DNA from: Nitrospinales bacterium | GTDB taxonomy: Bacteria > Nitrospinota > Nitrospinia > Nitrospinales > VA-1 | NCBI GenBank assembly: GCA_965262115.1 | Contig: OZ253496.1 | Location: forward strand, 1,472,001-1,536,000 | Reading direction: 5' to 3' | Length of the DNA: 64,000 nucleotides | Translations under genes and position numbers: made by a program | Part shown: in pieces, positions 43,008-61,610 of the stretch | Position numbering within the stretch: the first letter of the stretch is position 1 | Layout of the letters: the number at the start of each line of letters is the position of its first letter | The notes under the pieces: generated by a model | Told to the model about the DNA's origin: nothing | The model's database searches: none | The model's input: the letters and a program-made list of their open reading frames with translations, nothing else

Positions 43008-44452
43008 GGGCCTGTTGCCCAAAGGGTTGCCGTGAAGGGTTGCTGATATTAATTTTGTGTATTTCTTACGAATTTTCTTTTCTAAATTGAAATCCCAAAA
43101 CCCAGATTCATTCCTCCCCAAGTTGAAGCCTGCAAGCAGTTTTTGAATCGTTGTACGACCTTCAGTGCATGACTGTGAATCGGTTTTTTCAGGTGTTGGA
43201 TCATTCGTTTGATGTTTTGAATGGATGCGGTCAGGTATTCTTGAATCTGGATCAGCCATAATCTTCGCCACCGTGCCCTTTTGAATCCCAAGGGCACCGA
43301 ATATGCGAATGACCGTTCCATAAGATGCTGTCTCGTTTTCAGGTCTTGTTTTCCTTTTGGGGTCTTTGCCATTGCGCGCATTTCTTCGAGGTCGTCCTGA
43401 CGATCAACCCGTTGGATCGTGCGTCCGGTTGCACTACGTGTGCATTGGGATTTTAGTTCGCAGGCATTACCGTCGTCTGCTCTGGCGGCGTAATACATAC
43501 GCTGCTCTTTTAACCGGCAGGTCTTCAGCCGCAAGCGTTTGCCCACCGGGCAGATATAGGTATCGCTTTCAGGGTCGAATGTAAATGCGCTGTTGGAAAA
43601 TATTCCATGACGTTTGCCGTCTGTTTCCTGACTCTTTTTCAGGTCGGGCATATGGGGTTGAATGCCCATATCTTTGCAGGCAAGAAAGTTTTCCACCGTA
43701 CCGTATTTACTGTCGGCCACTGCGGTCTTCGCTGACATCCCGGTATTTTCCTGGTGCGCTTCCAGCATGGCACTGAACCGATGCGAATCGTCTACATCGC
43801 CACGTGTCACCTCAGTCGTGGTGATCACTTCCGCCGCCGGATCCACCGAACGATGTACTTTATAACGCAAACGCGAACCCCCGCGCGGCACAATCGCCGC
43901 ATCCGGAGCGGTCGTAGAACGGTAACGAACATTAACTTCTCTGCGTACCCGCCGATTATTGGATTCCTCCGGTTCGCCCAGTCTCTCACAAAGTTTCTCG
44001 TAACCCTTGGTTTCGATAATACGCTGGGATTAGGAATCACAGTGTCCAGACCATAACCCAGAAACCAGAGCCAATCCATCCGCTACGGAAGCGTACGCAT
44101 CAACTCACGTTCGGAACGAACGTTGTAAAAGATGAGCAGCAACATCAGTTTTAGCATCACCGGAGGCGGAACCGATTCGTTGCCATTGTGGCCGTACTTA
44201 TCCTTTACTTGTTCATACACAAAATCCAGGTTCAAAACGGAAGAAACTTGCCGCAACTCGTGATCTGGAGGACTCCGATCTTCAAGATTCACGGCCTAGT
44301 TAAAGAATACGCTCTGGGACGGGGTTTCGCGTTTCATCATGGGAATGACTCCCGGAAAAAAAGATTAAAACTGTAGAAGAACAAAAACTAGCCAGATAAA
44401 TTATAATCCTTATAAACCCACGCTTCTATCAAAAGGTTTGGGCAACAGGCCC
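43008..44452 (-). mobile_element. Defective IS1182-family element
   Basis: 16-bp TIR GGGCCTGTTGCCCAAA; transposase fragments (PPDH.LR, SERELM, WFLGY, ADSKYG, YICP.G, ERSFA) with a stop and an internal deletion. Confidence 0.88.
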
Positions 44453-51241: not shown

Positions 51242-51733
51242 ATGAATTTACCGAATATTCGCATTGGCAATGGTTATGATGTGCACCGTCTGGTTGAGGG
51301 AAGAAAACTCATCCTTGGAGGGGTCGATGTTCCGCATTCGATGGGACTGGACGGGCACTCCGATGCCGATGCCCTGGCACACGCTTTGTGCGATGCCCTG
51401 CTGGGGGCGCTGGGGGCGGGGGATATCGGTGCCTACTTTCCGGACACCGATTCGAAGTGGAAAGGCATTTCCAGCTTGCTGCTACTCAAAGAGGTCATGC
51501 GCATGTGCCGGGAAAAAGGGTTTGAACTTGCTAATGCCGATTCCGTGATCGTGGCGCAGAAGCCTAAACTTTCTCCGCATCTGCCAGAAATGAAAAAGAA
51601 TATTGCTGCGGCACTTGATGTAGAAACGAACCGGATAAATATTAAAGCCACCACAACTGAAAAGCTTGGGTTTGCCGGGCGGGAAGAAGGCATCACCGCC
51701 TACGCGGTTGCCTTACTGGTAAAAAATGTCTGA
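51242..51733 (+). CDS. ispF: MEcPP synthase
   Basis: [29 protein letters not shown]. Confidence 0.97.
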
Positions 51734-52979
51734 CCTTAACGAACGCATCGTAATCACAGGAATTGGGTTGACCTCCCCCAACGGCAACAACCTGAAAGAA
51801 TTCCGACAAAACCTGCTGAACGGGGTCTCAGGAGTGCAACATTTCGAAACCCGCTATATGGGGAAGGTCCACGCCGGAGTCTGCGATTTTGATGAACTGA
51901 AATACCAGAAGAAAAAAGAACGCCGTCGCGGCACCCGGGCCGGCTCTGTCGCCATCTACTGTTCGCAGGAAGCCATTGCCGATGCCGGAATTGATCTCGA
52001 AGCGATCGACCGTTCTAAAGTCGGTGTCTATCTCGGCGTGACCGAGCATGGCAATGTCGAGACCGAGAACGAAGTCTACAACATCAGCCAGTATGGTTAT
52101 GACACCAAGTTCTGGTCGCACCATCATAATCCCCGCACAGTGTCCAACAATCCGGCCGGCGAAGTGACCTTGAACATGAAAATCACCGGGCCGCATTACA
52201 CCATTGGCGCGGCCTGCGCCGCCGGGAATATGGGCGTCATTCAGGGTCTGCAGATGTTGCGGCTGGGGGAAGTCGATCTCGCATTGGTGGGCGGGGTGTC
52301 TGAGAGTATCCACACCTTCGGCATCTTTGCCAGTTTCAAAAGTGAGGGGGCTCTGGCCGAGCACGAAGACCCGACCAAAGCCAGCCGTCCGTTCGATAAA
52401 AACAGGAACGGCATCGTCTGTTCAGAGGGTGGTGCCGTCTACACGCTTGAACGATTATCGGATTCGCAAAAACGTGGCGCAAAAATCTACGGTGAAATCG
52501 TCGGTTACGCCACCAACTCCGACGCGATCGATTTCATCCTGCCCGACCCGGGCCGACAGGCTCAATGCATACGCATGGCGCTGGATAAGGCCGGACTCAA
52601 ACCGGGCGACATCGATATCCTCAATTGCCATGCCACCGCTACACAGATGGGAGACATTCAGGAGGCCAAGGCCATCCGCGAAGTGTTTGGCGATAACAGT
52701 AAAACGCGCATCAATAACACCAAAAGTTTTATCGGTCACACCATGGGTGCGGCGGGCACGCTGGAACTCTCCGGCAACCTGCCGACGTTTGAAGATAACC
52801 TGGTCCACCCCACCATCAATCTGGATGACCTCGACCCGGAATGCGCCTTGAACCACCTCGTCGCCAACAAACCGGAAAAACTCCCCTCCGTCGACCTCAT
52901 CATGAACAACTCCTTCGGCATGTTCGGCATCAATTCCGTCCTCATAGTGCGGAGTCCCTCCGCTGGGAACTTGCAATGA
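51726..52979 (+). CDS. Beta-ketoacyl-ACP synthase (FabF/FabB-like)
   Basis: AACAAG (catalytic Cys), [21 protein letters not shown]. Confidence 0.93.
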
Positions 52980-53116
52980 CTCTTTCTAGCGGACAAACAG
53001 TCTTTTTTGCCCATTGGGATATAACTATTTGCCCCCACGGCGAGTGGATTTAGGCTTGAAATTGGTCATATCTTCCATTAAAATCAAGGCTGACGGAGAC
53101 TTGTGAGAGGAAAGTA

Positions 53117-53380
53117 ATGACGATTGAAGAAGTACGGCAGATTATTCTTAATATCCTTGCTGATATTGCCCCGGATGAGGATATCAGTTCTATTGACGAC
53201 AACACCAAATTGCGCGACCAGATCGACCTGGATTCGATGGATTTCCTCGATATCGTCATGGAACTCAGAAAACGCTTCAACATAGAAGTGCCGGAAAAAG
53301 ATTACGAACATCTGGCTACTATGGCCGGCTGCATTTCTTACCTCACCCCCTTATTAAAAGACCGACCGTTGGCCACTTAG
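53117..53380 (+). CDS. Acyl carrier protein
   Basis: LDSMD phosphopantetheine site; acidic, 87 aa. Confidence 0.93.
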   Translation: MTIEEVRQIILNILADIAPDEDISSIDDNTKLRDQIDLDSMDFLDIVMELRKRFNIEVPEKDYEHLATMAGCISYLTPLLKDRPLAT

Positions 53381-53791
53381 GTTTTTTTAGCCCCTCTTTT
53401 TTTGACAGCATCCTTACATCCCCACTAAACACATTGCAAGGCTACGCCTTGAGGAAACTATTATCGCGGTGCTCCATTCGTCATCGCGAGCGACTGCAAG
53501 GGGCGCGGCGATCCAGTCTTTCCGCTTCGGGGCATGAAGGCAAATGAAGAATTTCACACAGTTGCTCGCGATGACAACCCCTTGTTGTAAATCACCCCAG
53601 CCCCTTGTGATATCACCTTCCATAAACTTCATGCCCGGTACGGGTACTTTGAAAAAGAGGGAGCACCCCATCAAGCCGAGAAAAACGATTGCTAGCAGTA
53701 AAACGCTATTGCATTTGTACCCCTCCGGGGCACGAAAACTGAGGAAGAATATCACGGCCCCAGCGTCACGCTGGGTGGTATAATTCGCGCT

Positions 53792-55174
53792 ATGCGTTAT
53801 GACACGATTGTAATAGGTGCGGGGCTATCGGGATTGGCCGCTGGCATTCGCCTGGCCATGTTTGATAAAAAGGTCTGCATTATTGAAAAGCATGTTGAGT
53901 TGGGCGGACTGAACTCTTTTTATGTGAGAAAAAACCGCACCTTTGATGTGGGACTCCACGCGATGACCAACTTTAGCCCTAAGGGTGTCCGGTCTTCGCC
54001 ATTGGGCAAACTTCTCAAACAACTGCGATTCAGTCATGACGACTTCCGCCTGTGCCAGCAGGAGATGTCGGAGATACGCTTCCCGGAGAAATCCCTTCGC
54101 TTCACCAACGATTTTGAGTTCATGCGCCAGGAAGTGGCGGAACAGTTCCCCGACCAGATAGACGGATTCAACAAGCTGGTGGAAAAAATTCTAGCTTTTG
54201 ACGAGCTGAACCTTAACGATGGCGAATGTCTTTCTTCTCGGCCTGTATTGGAATCATTCATCAGCGACCCGGTGTTGATCGACATGTTATTTTGTCCCTT
54301 AATGTATTACGGCAACGCCCGTGAAGGCGACATGGATTTCTATCAGTTCGTCATTATGTTCAAGAGCATTTTTGTAGAAGGATTCTCCAAGCCGGAAGGA
54401 GGCATGCATTTCATTCTCAACCTCCTGGCTGACAAGTACAAGAAACTGGGCGGTGAGTTGAAGATGGGGTGCGGGGTACAATCCATCAACGCCAGCAAGG
54501 GAACGGTCGCTTCGGTGACGCTGGAAAATGAGGAAGAGTTGGCCACCGCGATAGTGCTTTCTTCCATGGGTTATGTGGAAACGATGAACCGCTGCCAGCC
54601 CGAGCTCGCTGAAGCGGGAAGTTTGGAGACTGGGCAGGTGTCGTTTATGGAATCCCTTTTTGTGGTGGATAAGGAGCCCCGCGACCTGGGTTATGACCGG
54701 AGCATTGTCTTTTTTTCCACTCAGCCAAAGTTCACGTACAAGGTACCGGAGGATTTGATCGACATTTCCAGCGGTGTGTTGTGTTGCAGTAATAATTTCA
54801 AATATCCTAAACCTCTTAAAGAAGGGTTGATTCGGCTGACCAACCTGGCTAGTTTCGGGAAATGGGACAGTCTGGTGAGAAAAGACTATATCGCCGCCAA
54901 AAAGCAGTGTAGAGGCCGGGCTTTGCAGGAGTTATTCACATTTTTCCCCGATTTTAGCGATAATGTGGTATTTTTAGACTCGTTTACGCCTAAGACCATA
55001 AAGAAATATACAGACCATATTAACGGGGCTGTCTATGGATCGCCGGAGAAGATTAAGAACGGAAAAACCCCTGTCAAAAACCTGTATATATGCGGGACAG
55101 ATCAGGGGTTTTTAGGTATTGTTGGGGCCACATTGAGTGGAATATCCATGGCCAACCTGCATCTTTTACGATAA
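53792..55174 (+). CDS. Phytoene-desaturase-like FAD-dependent oxidoreductase 1
   Basis: IGAGLSG, EKH...GG, FDVGLH, TP.T...Y.....GAVYG. Confidence 0.85.
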   Translation: MRYDTIVIGAGLSGLAAGIRLAMFDKKVCIIEKHVELGGLNSFYVRKNRTFDVGLHAMTNFSPKGVRSSPLGKLLKQLRFSHDDFRLCQQEMSEIRFPEKSLRFTNDFEFMRQEVAEQFPDQIDGFNKLVEKILAFDELNLNDGECLSSRPVLESFISDPVLIDMLFCPLMYYGNAREGDMDFYQFVIMFKSIFVEGFSKPEGGMHFILNLLADKYKKLGGELKMGCGVQSINASKGTVASVTLENEEELATAIVLSSMGYVETMNRCQPELAEAGSLETGQVSFMESLFVVDKEPRDLGYDRSIVFFSTQPKFTYKVPEDLIDISSGVLCCSNNFKYPKPLKEGLIRLTNLASFGKWDSLVRKDYIAAKKQCRGRALQELFTFFPDFSDNVVFLDSFTPKTIKKYTDHINGAVYGSPEKIKNGKTPVKNLYICGTDQGFLGIVGATLSGISMANLHLLR

Positions 55175-55186
55175 ACAATCACATCA

Positions 55187-56635
55187 ATGAATAAACCCAA
55201 GAGAGACTGGTTGAAGGGTGTTTTGTCGGCTTACGATACGGTCGTCATTGGGAGCGGTCTGGCGGGAATGACGTCGGCCAATCTTCTGGCCAAGCTGGGA
55301 CACAAGGTTTTGCTGGCCGAGCATCATTATAATATGGGGGGCATGGCCACCTGGTTCAAACGCAAGGGCGGGCATATTATGGATATCTCCCTGCACGGGT
55401 TCCCCCGTGGGATGATTAAGACCCTCAGAAAATACTGGACCCAGGACATCTCGAACCGGGTCATCCAGCTCAAAAATATTCGTTTCGACAACCCGCAGTT
55501 TTCTCTCAATACCTCTTTCGACAAAATAGATTTCACCCATATTCTGCGTGAGCGTTTCTGTATCCTGAAAGAAGTGATCGACGAGTTCTTTTTGACCGTC
55601 CGCGACATGAATTTTTATGACGAAGTGGTCATGACCACCCGCGAGCTTTTTGAAAAATATTTTCCCGGCCGCACTGATGTCTGGCGTTTTCTCATGGAGC
55701 CGATCACCTATGCCAATGGTTCCACCCTTGATGATCCGGCAATCACTTACGGCATTGTGTTTTCCAACTTTATGGACAAGGGAGTTTTTACCTACCAGGG
55801 CGGCACCGATCACCTGATTAAGGAAATGAAGAAGGAGCTGTTGAAAAACGGCGTAGACATTCGCACGCACTGCATGGTCGAAAAAATTTATGTGGAGGAT
55901 AAAACCGTACAGGGGGTTCGCATCAATGGTCAGGATATCCAGTGCAAGTCGGTGCTTTCCAATTCCAACCTGTTGACCACCATCCAACAGCTGACCGGCG
56001 AGGAACATTTTGATGCTGAATTTATCAAAGAGGTCAAAAAAGTTAGGCTCAATAATTCCAGTTGCCAGGTTTATATGGGAATTAAAACAGGCGAAACAGT
56101 GCCGAATGTAGGCGATCTGTTGTTCTCGTCCGTGGCCGATGAATACTGCACAGATCAAATATTGAGTAAAGATGTTACCAGCCGCACGTTTTCATTTTAT
56201 TACCCGGAAATCCGCCCCGGTACCAATCGTTACTCCATCGTTTCTTCGACCAACGCCCGCTATCAGGACTGGGCCAACCTGAGTGAATCCCAATACAAAA
56301 AAGATAAGCACGATCTGGAGCAAACGACTCTCGACGCGCTGGAAAAATATGTTCCGGGCATAAGCAAAAAAGTGGACCATGTGGAAGCCTCAACCCCGAA
56401 AACTTTCAAGCGTTATACCCTGCACCCCTCGGGCACCTCGTTTGGAACCAAGTTTGAAGGACTCAAAATAAGCCGGGATCTTCCTAAACAGATCAATGGG
56501 CTGTTCCATGCCGGCTCGGTGGGGATCATCATGTCAGGTTGGCTGGGAGCGGCGAACTATGGGGTCATTGTCGCCAACGAAACCGACAAATTCCTCCGCC
56601 AGCTGAGCCCGAGCCTGGTGACGACATCGGCCTGA
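55187..56635 (+). CDS. Phytoene-desaturase-like FAD-dependent oxidoreductase 2
   Basis: IGSGLAG, EHH..MGG, DISLHG, STPKTF..Y. Confidence 0.85.
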
Positions 56636-56758
56636 ACACCTTTCTTCCCACTTGTCTTGCGGATCATACCTTGAGAAAATACATGATAACTATTGTTAAA
56701 GGGGCAAAAGCACCTGCTAGTTTAATGGGTATTGACCTATTGGCCCCACGCCGAGTGG

Positions 56759-57502
56759 ATGGAATTTGACTTTAAAGGACAAACAGCTTTGGTCACTGGC
56801 GGTACTCGCGGCATAGGCCGGGCTATCTCCGAGGCGTTTCTTAAAACCGGAGCGAAAGTCATCGCCGCTTATCGGGGCAACGATGAGGAGGCGGAGAACT
56901 TTAAACGCGCCAATGCCGGTCACGTCGGCTGTCTCGACATTCATAAATTCGATGTCACCGATTATGAAGCAGTGGAAAAGTTTTATAGAGATATTGAAGC
57001 GAAATATGAAAACTTTCAGATCCTCGTTGTTAGTTCGGGCATTCGATCTGATTCCATTGTTGGCATGATGAAAGCAGAAGACTGGAACCGTGTCATCGAC
57101 ACCAATCTGACGGGAACGTTCAATTTATGCAAGTTGGCGGTGCAGGCAATGATGCGCCAGAGGTATGGGCGGATCATCACTTTAACGTCTCCTATTGGCA
57201 AGTTAGGGTTTGCCGGTCAGGCCAATTACGCTGCATCAAAAGCTGGACAGGTGGCATTCACACGATCCCTTTCCAAGGAAGTGGCGAGCCGGGAAATAAC
57301 CGTGAATTGTGTATCGCCAGGCTTCATTGATACGGATTTCATTGGCGATCTGCCGGAAGAGCAAAGAAAATCCTATAAAGACCAGATTCCCCTGAAACGT
57401 TTCGGGACCCCGGAAGATGTTACCTACCCGGTGCTGTTTCTGGCCTCAAAAGAATCTTCTTACATCACGGGTTCGGTGTTAGAGGTAACCGGGGGACTAT
57501 AG
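56759..57502 (+). CDS. fabG: 3-oxoacyl-ACP reductase (SDR)
   Basis: TGGTRGIG, GQANYAASK, PGFIDT. Confidence 0.9.
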   Translation: MEFDFKGQTALVTGGTRGIGRAISEAFLKTGAKVIAAYRGNDEEAENFKRANAGHVGCLDIHKFDVTDYEAVEKFYRDIEAKYENFQILVVSSGIRSDSIVGMMKAEDWNRVIDTNLTGTFNLCKLAVQAMMRQRYGRIITLTSPIGKLGFAGQANYAASKAGQVAFTRSLSKEVASREITVNCVSPGFIDTDFIGDLPEEQRKSYKDQIPLKRFGTPEDVTYPVLFLASKESSYITGSVLEVTGGL

Positions 57503-57503
57503 A

Positions 57504-57929
57504 ATGCCACAGGACTTTCTCCAATACATTCCCCATCGTCCCCCTTTCCTATTTGTCGATCGGGTGCTTGAAGAAAGTGACGACACCATTAAGACGGAAA
57601 AAAAGATCGACCCGAAAGAACCTTTTTTTGAGGGACATTATCCTGGAAGACCGATCATGCCGGGAGTATTGATCTTTGAATCTATTTTTCAGTCCGGTGC
57701 AATCATGATGGGCAAACGCATCGCCAAGGAAGGCAGGATTCCTGTTCTCACCCGGGTCAACAACATCAAACTCAAGCACGCCGTCCATCCCGGAGACACC
57801 ATGCAGATTGAGGTGACCCTCAAAGACCTGGTCAGTAGCGCCGCCTATATGACGGGGAAAGCCAGCGTCAACGGTAAAATCGCAGTCACCCTGGAGTTCT
57901 CCGCCATGCTGGTTGAGGAGACGCAATGA
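57504..57929 (+). CDS. fabZ: 3-hydroxyacyl-ACP dehydratase
   Basis: [23 protein letters not shown]...E. Confidence 0.9.
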
Positions 57930-58729
57930 GTTTTTTGGATCTGGAAGATAAAAGCATCTTAGTGACCGGAGTGGCAAACAAGAAAAGTGTTGCCTGGCAT
58001 ATTGCGAAGACGCTGGAAGAAGAAGGCGCAAAGGTCATTTACAGCGTCCGCTCCGAAGACCGCAAAAAATCACTGGAAAAACTTCTGGCAGGTAAAACCG
58101 TTGTCATTTGTGATGTGGAAAAAGAGGAAGAGGTTGAACGTTTAAAGACTCAGGTTGCTGAACACTGTAAGGTTCTGCACGGACTCGTCCACTCGATAGC
58201 TTTTGCCAATTATTCAGAGGGCTGGAAACCGTTTCATGAAACGCCGAAAAAGGATTTTCTTCAGTCCATCGATATCAGTTGTTATTCCCTGATCCATCTA
58301 GCCAACGTTTTTAAGGACTTGTTTCACCAGCAAGCTTCTGTGGTCACGGTATCGATTTCGACTACGCGAATGGCGGCGGAAAATTATGGCTATATGGCTC
58401 CGGCTAAGGCGGCGCTTGATTCCACCCTCTGTTTCCTGGCAAAATCGTTCAGCGCTTTTTCTAAAGTTCGGTTCAACTCCATCAATCCCGGCCTGCTCAA
58501 GACATCGGCGTCAGCGGGCATCCCCGGTTATGTCGACTCCTACCTGCATGCCGAAAAAGCAACATTGAGGAAAAAGGCCCTGACCACCCAGGAGGCGGCC
58601 AATGCCGCAGTATTTTTATTGAGCGAACGCGCCAGCGGGATCAATGCTCAGGGCCTGGTTCTCGATGCTGGAATGTCCATCAACTATTTTGATCAGGAAT
58701 TGATTAAATCCACTCCCACCTCTTCGTGA
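57926..58729 (+). CDS. fabI: Enoyl-ACP reductase
   Basis: [27 protein letters not shown]. Confidence 0.88.
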
Positions 58730-58834: not shown

Positions 58835-60181
58835 ATGAATAGCTTTTTCGCTGATTTTGCCCAATTGATGTGGGGACCTTGGCTTCTTGCGCTTTTGTTG
58901 GGTACCGGTTTCTGGTTGACGATTCGGCTTCGGGGAATTCAATTCCGCAGTCTTTTCTATGCTCTCCGTTTGACATTCTCGAAGGAGCGGCAAGGACAAG
59001 GCGATATCTCTCACTTTGGCTCTTTGATGACAGCCTTGGCCGCGACGGTCGGCACTGGTAATATAGCCGGGGTCGGCACGGCAGTTGCCTTGGGCGGACC
59101 TGGTGCCATCTTCTGGATGTGGGTCACGGGCCTGGTGGGCATGGCGACCAAATACAGCGAATGTTTTCTGGCTGTTAAATTTCGCCGGGTCAATGATAAA
59201 GGCGAAATATCCGGCGGGCCGATGTATTACCTTGAAGAGGGTCTGAAAAGAAAATGGCTGGCAATGTGTTTTGCCGTATTCGGCGCTTGCGCGGCTTTCG
59301 GTATCGGCAATATGGTGCAGGCCAATACTACCGCTATCGCGGTGGAGGGCTCCATCGGGGCCAGTAAAATGGTTATAGGCGCGCTCCTCGCGTTTTTAAC
59401 CGGGCTGGTGGTGATCGGAGGACTCAAACGAATCGCCGAAGTCGCTTCTTATCTGGTTCCATTCATGGTTGCGATTTATTTTTCCGGCGCCTTGATCGTT
59501 ATTTTCAATCACCTGGACCAACTGGGTTCAGGAATGAGGCTGGTGTTTGAGCATGCTTTTACAGGAACTGCCGCGACTGGGGGATTTGTGGGAGCCTCTG
59601 TAGCGAATTGCATTCGCTACGGCGTGGCACGCGGAATTTTTTCCAACGAATCCGGCATGGGGAGTGCGCCCATCGTTGCCGCCGCCGCAAGAACCAATCA
59701 TCCCGGCAAACAGGCCCTAGTTTCCATGACCGGAACTTTTATCGACACCTTGATCGTTTGCTCCATCACCGCGATCGCGATCAGTTCTACCGGGGTGTGG
59801 ACCTCGGGTGCAACCGGCGTGGCATTGACCGTTCAGGCTTTTACTGCGGGGCTTCCCGTGTGGGGAGAACCTCTGGTTGCTCTGGGTACCATTACCTTCG
59901 CTTTTTCCAGCATTCTTGCCTGGGAATATTATGGTGAAAAGTGCTTTGAATATATTTTTGGGGAGAAATATATCCCCTTATATCGTTATGCCTGGGTGAT
60001 TTTTGTGTTTGTCGGTGCCCAAATCGAACTGGAGTTGGTTTGGAATCTTTCAGACGCGATGAACGCCTTGATGGCAGTACCCAACCTGATTGGGCTCATC
60101 TTTTTAAGCGGGGTTCTGTCCCGTGAGACTAAAGCTTACGAAACGGGAATCTGTGATGGTTCCATTAGTAAATTCGACTGA
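58835..60181 (+). CDS. Alanine/glycine:cation symporter (AGCS family)
   Basis: VGTGNIAGV, GGPGAIFWMW, GGPMYY, FSNESGMGS. Confidence 0.93.
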   Translation: MNSFFADFAQLMWGPWLLALLLGTGFWLTIRLRGIQFRSLFYALRLTFSKERQGQGDISHFGSLMTALAATVGTGNIAGVGTAVALGGPGAIFWMWVTGLVGMATKYSECFLAVKFRRVNDKGEISGGPMYYLEEGLKRKWLAMCFAVFGACAAFGIGNMVQANTTAIAVEGSIGASKMVIGALLAFLTGLVVIGGLKRIAEVASYLVPFMVAIYFSGALIVIFNHLDQLGSGMRLVFEHAFTGTAATGGFVGASVANCIRYGVARGIFSNESGMGSAPIVAAAARTNHPGKQALVSMTGTFIDTLIVCSITAIAISSTGVWTSGATGVALTVQAFTAGLPVWGEPLVALGTITFAFSSILAWEYYGEKCFEYIFGEKYIPLYRYAWVIFVFVGAQIELELVWNLSDAMNALMAVPNLIGLIFLSGVLSRETKAYETGICDGSISKFD

Positions 60182-60206
60182 TGAAAAACACCTGGGAGTC
60201 CTGATC

Positions 60207-61610
60207 ATGTATAAAGCCTGTCTGAAGCTTCACTACTTCTTCTTCCTGATTTTTATCACTGTTGTCAGCCCGGCAGATCAAGCCTATGGCGAGATAGAAT
60301 TGAATCTCTTTACCAATACATTCGATAAGTTTTCTGTGGACGGCCAGTTTCATGTATTTTTTCGACACGATAGTAATCCCTCTTTTGGGGTACCTGCGGA
60401 CACAAGGGGACGGGCAGAAACGACTTTTGGGGAAACAGTGGCCAAGCTGGGTTTCACGTTTGAGAAAAAAATGCCATGGACGGTTTTGGAAGGCCGTGTC
60501 AGCGGGGTATTAATGTCCACCATCAATGCGGATGTATATGGAATTGCAGATGACGAAAGCCAGGGCGATCTGAATGAAGGCTTTTTGATCCTCAAAAAAA
60601 TCAATCAATCCCCTATAGACATCAAGGTCGGCCGCCAGAATATCTTCATTGAAAAATCCTTTATTTCAGGAGACGCGAATCCCGAAGACGCGGCGATATG
60701 GATTTCCGCGCATAAAAGTTTTCCCTTTGCCGTAAGAGTAGATGGAGATTTCGGAAAGTTAAAAACCCTTGCTTTCTGGGCCGATACTGAGCTTTACTCG
60801 CAACAGGGTGATCAGCGAGAGGCGGGAAAAAGAGGAAAGGAGGGTGTCTCCTTTGCGGGAATAAATATACATTACGACTTTTCAGAAACCGCCTATTTAT
60901 ATGGGGGATATTACAGAAAAATAGATGAGAGCAATATTACCTTTGCCAACTTTTCCCCCGGCGGACAAGACCTGTTCTCTGAAAATAACACTAATGCGTT
61001 TGATATAGGGTTTGACACTGCGGTTGGGTCTTTTCATTTTGCTGGAGAATTTGTTTACCAAACGGGAGATGCCGGACGCCTCGGTGGCCAGGAATTAAGC
61101 CGGGACGCCCATGCCGGTTTTGCCCAAGCTCGGTATAATTTCAACCACTCCGCAAACCCTTACCTGAAATTCATGTACGTGTTTTTTTCCGGGGATTCAG
61201 ACCTTGAGGACGATGAAGCGGAAGATTATGACCCCATGTTTATCACCAGCAGGGTTTGGAATGAATGGTTGATCGGGCAGCATGTTGGTGAGGTTCAACT
61301 TGCCAATACGAACAAGTATGCTTTCATTGTGGAAACCGGCTTTTCGCCAATGCCGAGAATGCAAATGGCTTTTATGTTTTTAAAGCATTATTTGGATGAG
61401 CGGTACCTTGGAGTCTCAAGAGGAAGACAAGCCCTGAACAGCGATGATTACGCGGATGAATGGAATTTGCTGATCGACTACGAAGTCAATAACCATGTAT
61501 TTGCCCATGTTGGGGCTGGCTATGTAATTCCGGGAAAAGCGGCGGAAGAATTTTTTGGCAACGGCAACAATAATTTTTTCACCCAAGTGTGGTTAAAGTT
61601 CCATTTTTAA
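60207..61610 (+). CDS. Outer-membrane beta-barrel, alginate-export-like porin
   Basis: Signal peptide, KVGRQ, E..YQTG, SGD..., C-terminal Phe. Confidence 0.7.
   Translation: MYKACLKLHYFFFLIFITVVSPADQAYGEIELNLFTNTFDKFSVDGQFHVFFRHDSNPSFGVPADTRGRAETTFGETVAKLGFTFEKKMPWTVLEGRVSGVLMSTINADVYGIADDESQGDLNEGFLILKKINQSPIDIKVGRQNIFIEKSFISGDANPEDAAIWISAHKSFPFAVRVDGDFGKLKTLAFWADTELYSQQGDQREAGKRGKEGVSFAGINIHYDFSETAYLYGGYYRKIDESNITFANFSPGGQDLFSENNTNAFDIGFDTAVGSFHFAGEFVYQTGDAGRLGGQELSRDAHAGFAQARYNFNHSANPYLKFMYVFFSGDSDLEDDEAEDYDPMFITSRVWNEWLIGQHVGEVQLANTNKYAFIVETGFSPMPRMQMAFMFLKHYLDERYLGVSRGRQALNSDDYADEWNLLIDYEVNNHVFAHVGAGYVIPGKAAEEFFGNGNNNFFTQVWLKFHF

Follow-up and report, generated by a model that had tools for sequence, protein, structure and literature searches.

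In the olefin-forming Ole pathway two acyl chains are condensed by OleA, and the product is converted to an olefin by OleD, OleC and OleB (PMC6463001, PMC4882568). In bacteria that carry the Pfa synthase (PfaABCDE) together with OleABCD, as described for Shewanella, Photobacterium and Geobacter bemidjiensis (PMC6463001, PMC4882568, PMC3098273), the predicted chain is 16:4n-3 and the product C31:9 (PMC6463001, PMC4882568), and OleA has been argued to take 16:4n-3 directly from the acyl carrier protein (ACP) of its partner (PMC6463001). Anaerobic polyunsaturated chains have so far been explained only by Pfa, yet C31:9 is also found where Pfa is reportedly lacking: Desulfotalea psychrophila makes C31:8 and C31:9 without Pfa or known polyunsaturated pathways (PMC2649909). 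A compact candidate for this gap, about 7 kb in length and encoding small proteins, is a seven-gene cassette at positions 51726-58729 of a 64,000-nt stretch of the genome of a Nitrospinales bacterium (the window; coordinates are positions in the whole window unless a contig or locus is named). The cassette presumably constitutes a type II synthase of dissociated enzymes which takes over the supply of OleA from the Pfa synthase, a reading to which we assign a probability of roughly 0.7. It rests on the gene set, the intact catalytic residues, the linkage to ole genes, the near-total dependence on OleA, the exclusion of PfaD and a cassette-specific clade of OleA.

The seven co-oriented open reading frames (ORFs) on the plus strand encode, in this order, a ketosynthase (KS), an ACP, two flavoproteins (OXA and OXB), a ketoreductase (KR), a dehydratase (DH) and an enoyl-ACP reductase (ER). 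This arrangement had been read in the same way in an earlier note made from the sequence alone, and the gene families were confirmed by Pfam and NCBIfam. All features of type II fatty acid synthesis (FAS-II) are present as discrete KS, ACP, KR, DH and ER proteins with their catalytic residues, as expected for the dedicated ACP-bound elongation cycle proposed in that note. The motifs, described there as intact, are moreover invariant in the homologues from the fetched loci: C164/H302/H338 of the KS in 32/32 rows, the serine of the DSMDFL motif of the ACP in 34/34, H45/E59 of the DH in 50/50 and Y154/K161 of the ER in 40/40. In the ER, Ile144 is also invariant (40/40 rows), at a position which we take to be that of the first active-site tyrosine of E. 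coli FabI.

Compared with housekeeping FAS-II the cassette employs the same enzyme families and residues, but it represents a separate paralogous set, its proteins being 30-42% identical to the housekeeping paralogues of the same genome. The KS shares 33% identity with the FabF of its own genome and about 61-72% with orthologues in other phyla, and the corresponding values for the ACP are 30% to the own AcpP and about 51-64%. KS, ACP and ER all score below the equivalog cut-offs of the canonical FabF, AcpP and FabI. The gate loop of the KS reads FGM(L/F)G where the housekeeping FabF has FGFGG. As had been noted before, the cluster contains no genes for FabH, FabD and PlsX; these belong to a canonical plsX-fabH-fabD-fabG-acpP-fabF operon at another site of the genome, and fabZ lies in the lpx region. 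The ER is possibly common to both systems.

The cassette resembles the Pfa-OleABCD systems cited above in its presumed place in metabolism, as an additional system for building chains on an ACP of its own, in its linkage to ole genes and in the frequent arrangement of both in one operon, and the KS, ACP, KR, DH and ER activities are common to both. In contrast to Pfa, the genes of the cassette all encode single-domain proteins, and multidomain PfaA or PfaC proteins, tandem ACPs (there is one ACP), a chain-length factor and an acyltransferase are lacking. There is one KS, the DH is of the FabZ type without any FabA-type domain (32 bits with the fabA model TIGR01749, cut-off 238), the ER is of the FabI type instead of PfaD, and the two flavoproteins with a CrtI fold are peculiar to the cassette. 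Judged by these sequence comparisons and those given below, the cassette does not belong to the families of Pfa, CrtI, HpnE or the ladderane clusters.

The distribution of OXB, OleA and PfaD was profiled in 643 genomes of four phyla, using thresholds of E<=1e-80 for OXB (1e-10 in Nitrospinota), E<=1e-60 for OleA (NF006720) and E<=1e-60 for PfaD (TIGR02814; 1e-30 in Nitrospinota); each phylum sample includes its centre genome, which is OXB-positive by construction. Among 171 Planctomycetota OXB was detected in 31, OleA in 59 and PfaD in 26 genomes. All OXB and all PfaD genomes were OleA-positive, and the overlap of OXB and PfaD was 0, as against 13.7 expected among OleA genomes if the two were independent. 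Desulfobacterota (n=201) comprised 12 OXB genomes (10 with OleA), 21 OleA genomes and 15 PfaD genomes (9 with OleA), again with no overlap of OXB and PfaD. In Verrucomicrobiota (n=151) OXB and OleA were found in 31 genomes each, of which 30 are shared, and the remaining OleA genome has PfaD. Taken together, OleA is present in 71/74 OXB genomes among the 523 genomes of these three phyla, and their 111 OleA genomes divide into 71 with OXB, 36 with PfaD, 4 with neither and 0 with both. Of these four, G269 carries the KS, ACP and OXA of the cassette, and the other three have long frames resembling polyketide synthases (PKS). The 120 Nitrospinota yielded 98 OXB matches (95 strong; G084, G004 and G112 weak), 86 OleA genomes and a single PfaD genome, which is OleA-positive and OXB-negative, so that OXB and PfaD coincide in 0/643 genomes searched. 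For some planctomycetes and deltaproteobacteria pfa-like clusters had been suggested as the source of olefin precursors (PMC3098273), which agrees with the PfaD half of this profile. Lacipirellula parvula makes n-C31:9 at 2.8% (PMC6995999), and in Botrimarina colliarenosi, which belongs to its family, OXB and OleA were detected but PfaD was not.

The genomic context of OXB was examined in the best 80 of 261 confirmed loci of a GTDB scan, ranked by likeness to one OXB-type protein (P0241) and labelled as Opitutales, Planctomycetota, Nitrospinota, Desulfobulbaceae, Halobacteriovoraceae and others. Near OXB, genes for DH were detected in 46 loci, for ER in 41, for OXA in 38, for ACP in 34 and for KS in 33, while in other phyla the cassette frequently lacks the KR gene (present in 10/80 loci). 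In 4/4 cases in which OXB stands apart, OXA was found elsewhere in the genome. Within the 9-kb flanks an OleA-like gene occurs in 28/80 loci and OleB in 21/80. Two loci combine everything in one operon, with the gene orders KS-ACP-OXA-OXB-KR-DH-ER-oleA-oleB-oleC-oleD (L141) and oleA-KS-ACP-OXA-OXB-KR-DH-ER-oleB-oleC-oleD (L145). For the OleA-like protein encoded in L141 the match to the 3ROW structure group, 3ROW being OleA of Xanthomonas, is at 1.5e-67 and that to FabH at 5e-18. In addition, fusions of OXA with OXB (P0394, P0395), OXB with DH (P0242) and OXB with ER (P0397) were identified in relatives, although these are assembly-derived single proteins of which some may be frameshift artefacts. 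The flavoproteins are conserved beside fab genes across phyla, which like the fusions bears out part of the earlier proposal. Variants of the cassette include two OXA copies (L034:5899-8949), repeated C-terminal OXB fragments (L047:10498-10854) and a KS-ACP-OXA group divergent from OXB (L052:5590-10446).

A tree was built from 45 OleA proteins selected to cover the four phyla, of which 25 are linked to the cassette, 17 to Pfa and 3 to neither, with the FabH of the own genome as outgroup. All 25 cassette-linked proteins form one group (bootstrap 89, Shimodaira-Hasegawa-like approximate likelihood ratio test 94), which stayed together in 88% of the bootstrap trees, and of the 17 Pfa-linked proteins 15 fall into a group with 100/100 support. 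The type of OleA follows the supplier and not the phylum, which is consistent with the report that the substrate is delivered by the ACP of the partner (PMC6463001).

The separation of the two OleA clades also suits the view that the cassette feeds OleA with another specialised chain (mono- or di-unsaturated, conjugated or of other length) leading to hydrocarbons or beta-lactones other than C31:9. Beta-lactones are also made by OleA, OleC and OleD (PMC7064751), and in D. psychrophila C31:8 exceeds C31:9 (PMC2649909). We consider such a product unlikely, given that in four phyla the cassette and PfaD strictly replace each other, which suggests one and the same class of product, and that C31:9 was reported from lineages carrying the cassette (PMC2649909, PMC6995999). 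The cassette product is probably the precursor of C31:9, i.e. the predicted 16:4n-3 acyl-ACP.

Several points weigh against the cassette as a substitute for Pfa in supplying OleA. It may have been transferred or spread jointly with its OleA, which would mean fewer independent events, and since related genomes in the samples are not independent the Fisher test values of the association are overstated. Many of the sampled genomes are incomplete, and outside Nitrospinota 7-13 candidates per genome were scored. The PfaD model TIGR02814 also matches in Bacillus subtilis and hence marks other PKS, too. No OleA was detected in three OXB genomes (G122, G303, G566), and seven PfaD genomes are without OleA. 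About half of the loci are split, KS, ACP and OXA being found together in 30 of the 61 loci that have at least 6 kb upstream. In the Nitrospina-like genome studied here the ole genes are distant from the cassette, and the scores of its OleC- and OleD-like proteins do not reach the cut-offs of the named Ole models. The cassette has one KS, as opposed to the two KS domains of Pfa for 3-cis and 2-cis substrates. Finally, the records of C31 polyenes stem from D. psychrophila and L. parvula, whereas the cassette was verified in other genomes.

The genome in question (G000; 2.68 Mb, one contig, 93.9% complete, Nitrospinaceae-like) encodes an oleA-oleB-like pair at C1:112441-114353, whose OleA reaches 451.6 bits with NF006720 (cut-off 285) and whose OleB-like protein is haloalkane-dehalogenase-like and below the named Ole cut-off. 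An oleD-like gene is located at C1:173807 (351 bits, named OleD cut-off 580) and an oleC-like gene at C1:2545032 (558, OleC cut-off 900, above that of PRK09274). No match to PfaD (TIGR02814) was obtained in this genome. It contains only three stand-alone KS genes, the third of which is FabF-like and has no fab neighbours (G000:C1:1611732-1612982, L006); the cassette might use it as an additional condensing enzyme, or the two might have nothing to do with each other.

The earlier note had favoured an alternative route to unsaturated fatty acids. What stands of this proposal is the dedicated elongation cycle, and it is also in line with the presence of the cassette in Desulfobacterota, a largely anaerobic phylum. 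An oxygen-independent route to ordinary membrane fatty acids that replaces FabA/FabB or desaturases, with only a secondary link to Ole, is improbable. Such a route would account for the failure to find FabA in the own genome, where only two FabZ-type genes were detected, and in D. psychrophila isotope values connect the C31 polyenes with part of the monounsaturated acids (PMC2649909). Furthermore, the cassette ER is the sole FabI-like gene found in the own genome, in three other single-contig Nitrospinales genomes and in one Opitutaceae genome (together G000, G073, G024, G020 and G121), and the cassette may therefore touch bulk synthesis. Since it is the only gene of its kind in these genomes, the ER may also serve housekeeping synthesis; the cassette carriers G120 and G123 have a second FabI-like gene. 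A search for FabK in the own genome returned only proteins that were read by eye as IMP dehydrogenase-like and dihydroorotate dehydrogenase-like, and the search for FabV (PF12241), which matched no control genome, is uninformative about its absence. On the other hand, the own genome encodes two PF00487 membrane desaturases, one of them DesA-like, the cassette is absent from most sampled genomes of Planctomycetota, Verrucomicrobiota and Desulfobacterota, and a membrane role does not predict OleA in nearly all OXB genomes. The tie to OleA together with the exclusion of the Pfa marker therefore indicates a precursor of polyunsaturated hydrocarbons and not a general route to unsaturated membrane fatty acids.

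Both flavoproteins, described earlier as phytoene-desaturase-like, belong to PF01593, carry an N-terminal GxGxxG motif and are predicted to adopt a CrtI-like fold. The AlphaFold models (pLDDT, a per-residue confidence score, 92.5 for OXA and 90.9 for OXB) both find 4REP as best Foldseek match (TM, a fold-similarity score, 0.74; 20% and 16% identity, respectively). They have the fold, the motif binding flavin adenine dinucleotide (FAD) and the family chemistry in common with CrtI, CrtD and CRTISO (4DGK, 4REP) and with UfaD. OXA and OXB are only 23% identical to each other and form two separate clades in the tree. Their scores lie far below every cut-off of these families: 61 and 80 bits with crtI_fam (238), 78 and 101 with carot_isom (587). 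Unlike the carotenoid enzymes they have ACP-dependent enzymes as neighbours and are kept together as two diverged paralogues. Their top named homologues come from Nitrospina and Nitrospinaceae, OXB orthologues are named for the cultured Nitrospina gracilis 3/211 and N. watsonii, relatives in the ESM Atlas bear only automatic phytoene-dehydrogenase-like names, and no close solved relative was found in the PDB searches. A heterodimer of OXA and OXB is suggested by one line of evidence, the two OXA-OXB fusions; a prediction of the complex gave a score of 0.00 in two runs, which counts neither for nor against pairing.

Due to the CrtI fold and the position of the cassette behind uppS-cdsA-dxr-ispF, an activity of the flavoproteins on isoprenoids, either carotenoids or hopanoid precursors as in HpnE, had to be considered. 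The own genome contains a squalene-hopene cyclase gene above cut-off and one squalene-synthase-like gene (TIGR01559 159.5 bits, below the cut-off of 286.75), listed respectively as C1:1731591-1733555 and C1:1051088-1052191, and no HpnE above cut-off was found in it. These two genes are present instead of an hpnCDE set, and the squalene-synthase-like gene, though below its cut-off, would make HpnE unnecessary. OXA and OXB reach only 34 and 32 bits with the HpnE model TIGR03467 (cut-off 283), no hpn gene lies beside the cassette, and the OXB fusions join DH and ER. Taking furthermore into account the low CrtI scores given above, an isoprenoid substrate appears very improbable. The location at the end of the rpsB-to-ispF run, including the overlap with ispF, is correct for this genome, but it is lineage-specific, as ispF adjoins the cassette in 2/80 loci only. 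An isoprenoid role based on the ispF overlap was rejected accordingly, the ispF link being local.

In Pfa the chain passes through 3-cis and 2-cis intermediates generated by FabA-type domains, and two KS domains are employed (PMC11962503). In the mechanism that we propose for the cassette, malonyl and starter units would be provided by the housekeeping FabD and FabH, and elongation on the cassette ACP would be run by KS, KR, DH and ER. OXA and OXB would replace the FabA-type dehydratase/isomerase domains of Pfa by acting as reduced-flavin isomerases that do not need oxygen: one of them would shift the trans-2 bond to cis-3 (at C6 and C12) and the other would set the cis geometry at even positions (C8 and C14), with the ER saturating at C4, C10 and C16. 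The altered KS may pull the kinked products forward, and OleA with OleBCD would finally condense two 16:4n-3 chains into C31:9. A role of OXA and OXB in setting cis bonds is proposed because isomerases with a CrtI fold use reduced FAD for cis/trans isomerisation without net redox change (PMC3382138), because UfaD, a phytoene-dehydrogenase-related desaturase, acts on fatty acyl chains (PMC7380195), and because the cassette is without FabA-type domains. By this analogy we tentatively favour a non-redox isomerisation over desaturation or diene reduction as the flavin step, at somewhat less than even odds.

A variant in which the cassette likewise feeds OleA but the flavoproteins perform redox chemistry is a serious possibility, even if we hesitate to call it probable. 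It would involve either a quinone-dependent desaturation of acyl-ACP, in line with Rattray 2009, or the reduction of 2,4-dienoyl-ACP to cis-3-enoyl-ACP in the manner of retinol saturase, combined with isomerisation. The closest structures are those of carotenoid desaturases, UfaD provides a precedent among the acyl desaturases (PMC7380195), quinones can substitute for oxygen in CrtI (PMC3382138), and relatives of OXB are named all-trans-retinol 13,14-reductase by some sources. A single KS would also suit a route that avoids 2-cis substrates. However, CrtI and UfaD extend conjugation whereas the double bonds of C31:9 are methylene-interrupted, UfaD requires oxygen (PMC7380195), and KS, KR and DH already provide double bonds without any oxidation.

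In its widest form the proposal, which we hold to be slightly better than evenly balanced, is that of a third route to methylene-interrupted polyunsaturated chains beside the oxygen-dependent desaturases and Pfa. In this route a seven-gene type II synthase with a pair of CrtI-fold proteins would install cis bonds on ACP without oxygen. In Opitutales and nearly all marine Nitrospinales, as well as in many planctomycetes and some sulfate reducers, OleA might receive its substrate mainly by this route, and Nitrospina might contribute to oceanic C31:9 without having been recognised as a source. No description of the cassette as a Pfa substitute or partner of Ole and no data on hydrocarbon lipids of Nitrospina were found in the open-access literature. 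If the proposal is true, flavins would perform a chemistry on acyl-ACP that is new, omega-3 chains could be engineered on a small platform of dissociated enzymes, and a lipid biomarker that is usually tied to Pfa-bearing bacteria would have a new source (marine nitrite oxidisers and Opitutales). A test in E. coli together with oleA is possible by means of the existing read-out of the 31:8 ketone.

Phytoene-dehydrogenase-like proteins within FAS-II clusters have been described before. In D. psychrophila they are DP1860, DP2405 and DP2406, and a novel anaerobic route was proposed (Rattray 2009, PMC2649909). In Kuenenia stuttgartiensis kuste3336 and kuste3607 are 31-33% identical to a CrtI and gave no lycopene or CrtI activity in E. 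coli (Javidpour 2016, PMC4790861). According to the passages considered, PF01593 flavoproteins are located within FAS-II gene clusters there as well as here, and the passages neither link the clusters to OleABCD nor treat them as a Pfa substitute. OXA and OXB are more remote than the Kuenenia enzymes, with 14-20% identity to solved CrtI and CrtD structures. Likened by description, DP2405/DP2406 may be an OXA/OXB pair, and a Desulfobulbaceae-labelled locus (L084) has a tandem OXA-OXB pair. The cassette differs from the D. psychrophila and Kuenenia clusters by its lack of radical SAM, methylase and non-canonical FabF genes.

The earlier note had chosen anammox clusters for comparison, which do not turn out to be the closest analogue. 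The ladderane candidate clusters of anammox bacteria have radical SAM enzymes and a FabF lacking the catalytic cysteine, and the cassette has neither. All six frames of 51726-58729 are free of the CxxxCxxC motif, and therefore, as the note had stated, there is no radical SAM gene in the cluster. A ladderane-type cluster was rejected on this ground and because the KS keeps Cys164/His302/His338; a chance juxtaposition of the cassette genes was rejected as well. On a contig labelled Candidatus Kuenenia (L015:9001-10425) an OXB orthologue (64%) was observed with no other cassette gene nearby; either the gene is genuinely present in anammox bacteria or the contig was binned wrongly.

Table 1. Features of the cassette and its upstream neighbour in the window.
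Feature	Position	Strand	Description	Basis
ispF	51242..51733	+	upstream neighbour, outside the conserved cassette	TIGR00151 218.5 bits, cut-off 116.45
KS	51726..52979	+	dedicated ketosynthase (Cys-His-His)	PF00109/PF02801; 328, fabF cut-off 494
ACP	53117..53380	+	dedicated acyl carrier protein, DSMDFL motif	PF00550
ACP-OXA gap	53381..53791		patchwork of small repeats dispersed in the genome, with a palindromic hairpin	blastn, RNAfold
OXA	53792..55174	+	flavoprotein A, predicted CrtI/CrtISO-like fold, own orthologous group	PF01593
OXB	55187..56635	+	flavoprotein B, predicted CrtI/CrtISO-like fold, own orthologous group	PF01593
KR	56732..57502 (likely start ATG 56759)	+	FabG-like ketoreductase	NF009466 254.5 bits, cut-off 222
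DH	57504..57929	+	FabZ-type dehydratase, not FabA-type	NF000582 126 bits, cut-off 113
ER	57926..58729	+	FabI-like enoyl-ACP reductase	best matches are FabI models, below their cut-offs

Upstream, the same strand carries the gene run rpsB-tsf-pyrH-frr-uppS-cdsA-dxr-ispF (Table 1), the last gene of which overlaps the KS gene by 8 bp, as stated in the earlier note. Within the cassette the gaps are 137 bp (KS-ACP), 411 bp (ACP-OXA), 12 bp (OXA-OXB), 96 bp (OXB-KR), 1 bp (KR-DH) and -4 bp (DH-ER). The ACP-OXA gap has 174 other blastn matches in the own genome and contains a hairpin of -43.6 kcal/mol at 53468-53580 (RNAfold); its repeats are incidental. Smaller repeats were also observed in the KS-ACP and OXB-KR gaps. 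A promoter scan was at chance level (9 against 8.0 expected), and 14 terminators were predicted against 9.6 expected.

Downstream of the cassette (58835-61610) genes for an AgcS amino-acid carrier and an alginate-export-family protein of the outer membrane were observed, and agcS lies beside the cassette in none of the 80 GTDB loci. A short ORF on the minus strand upstream of rpsB (44083-44292) resembles by eye a transposase fragment. Elsewhere in the genome, two tandem identical OmpH/Skp-like ORFs of 180 amino acids precede fabZ (C1:1699643-1701005), which reflects either a recent duplication or an assembly artefact. The second PF00487 desaturase gene lies in a run (G000:C1:1112330-1117725, around L001) with genes that by eye resemble those of a class II pyridoxal phosphate-dependent aminotransferase, a GNAT protein, an NAD-dependent epimerase and a CDP-alcohol phosphotransferase. 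In this the run resembles bacterial gene sets for ceramide/sphingolipid synthesis, whose presence in Nitrospina would be remarkable.

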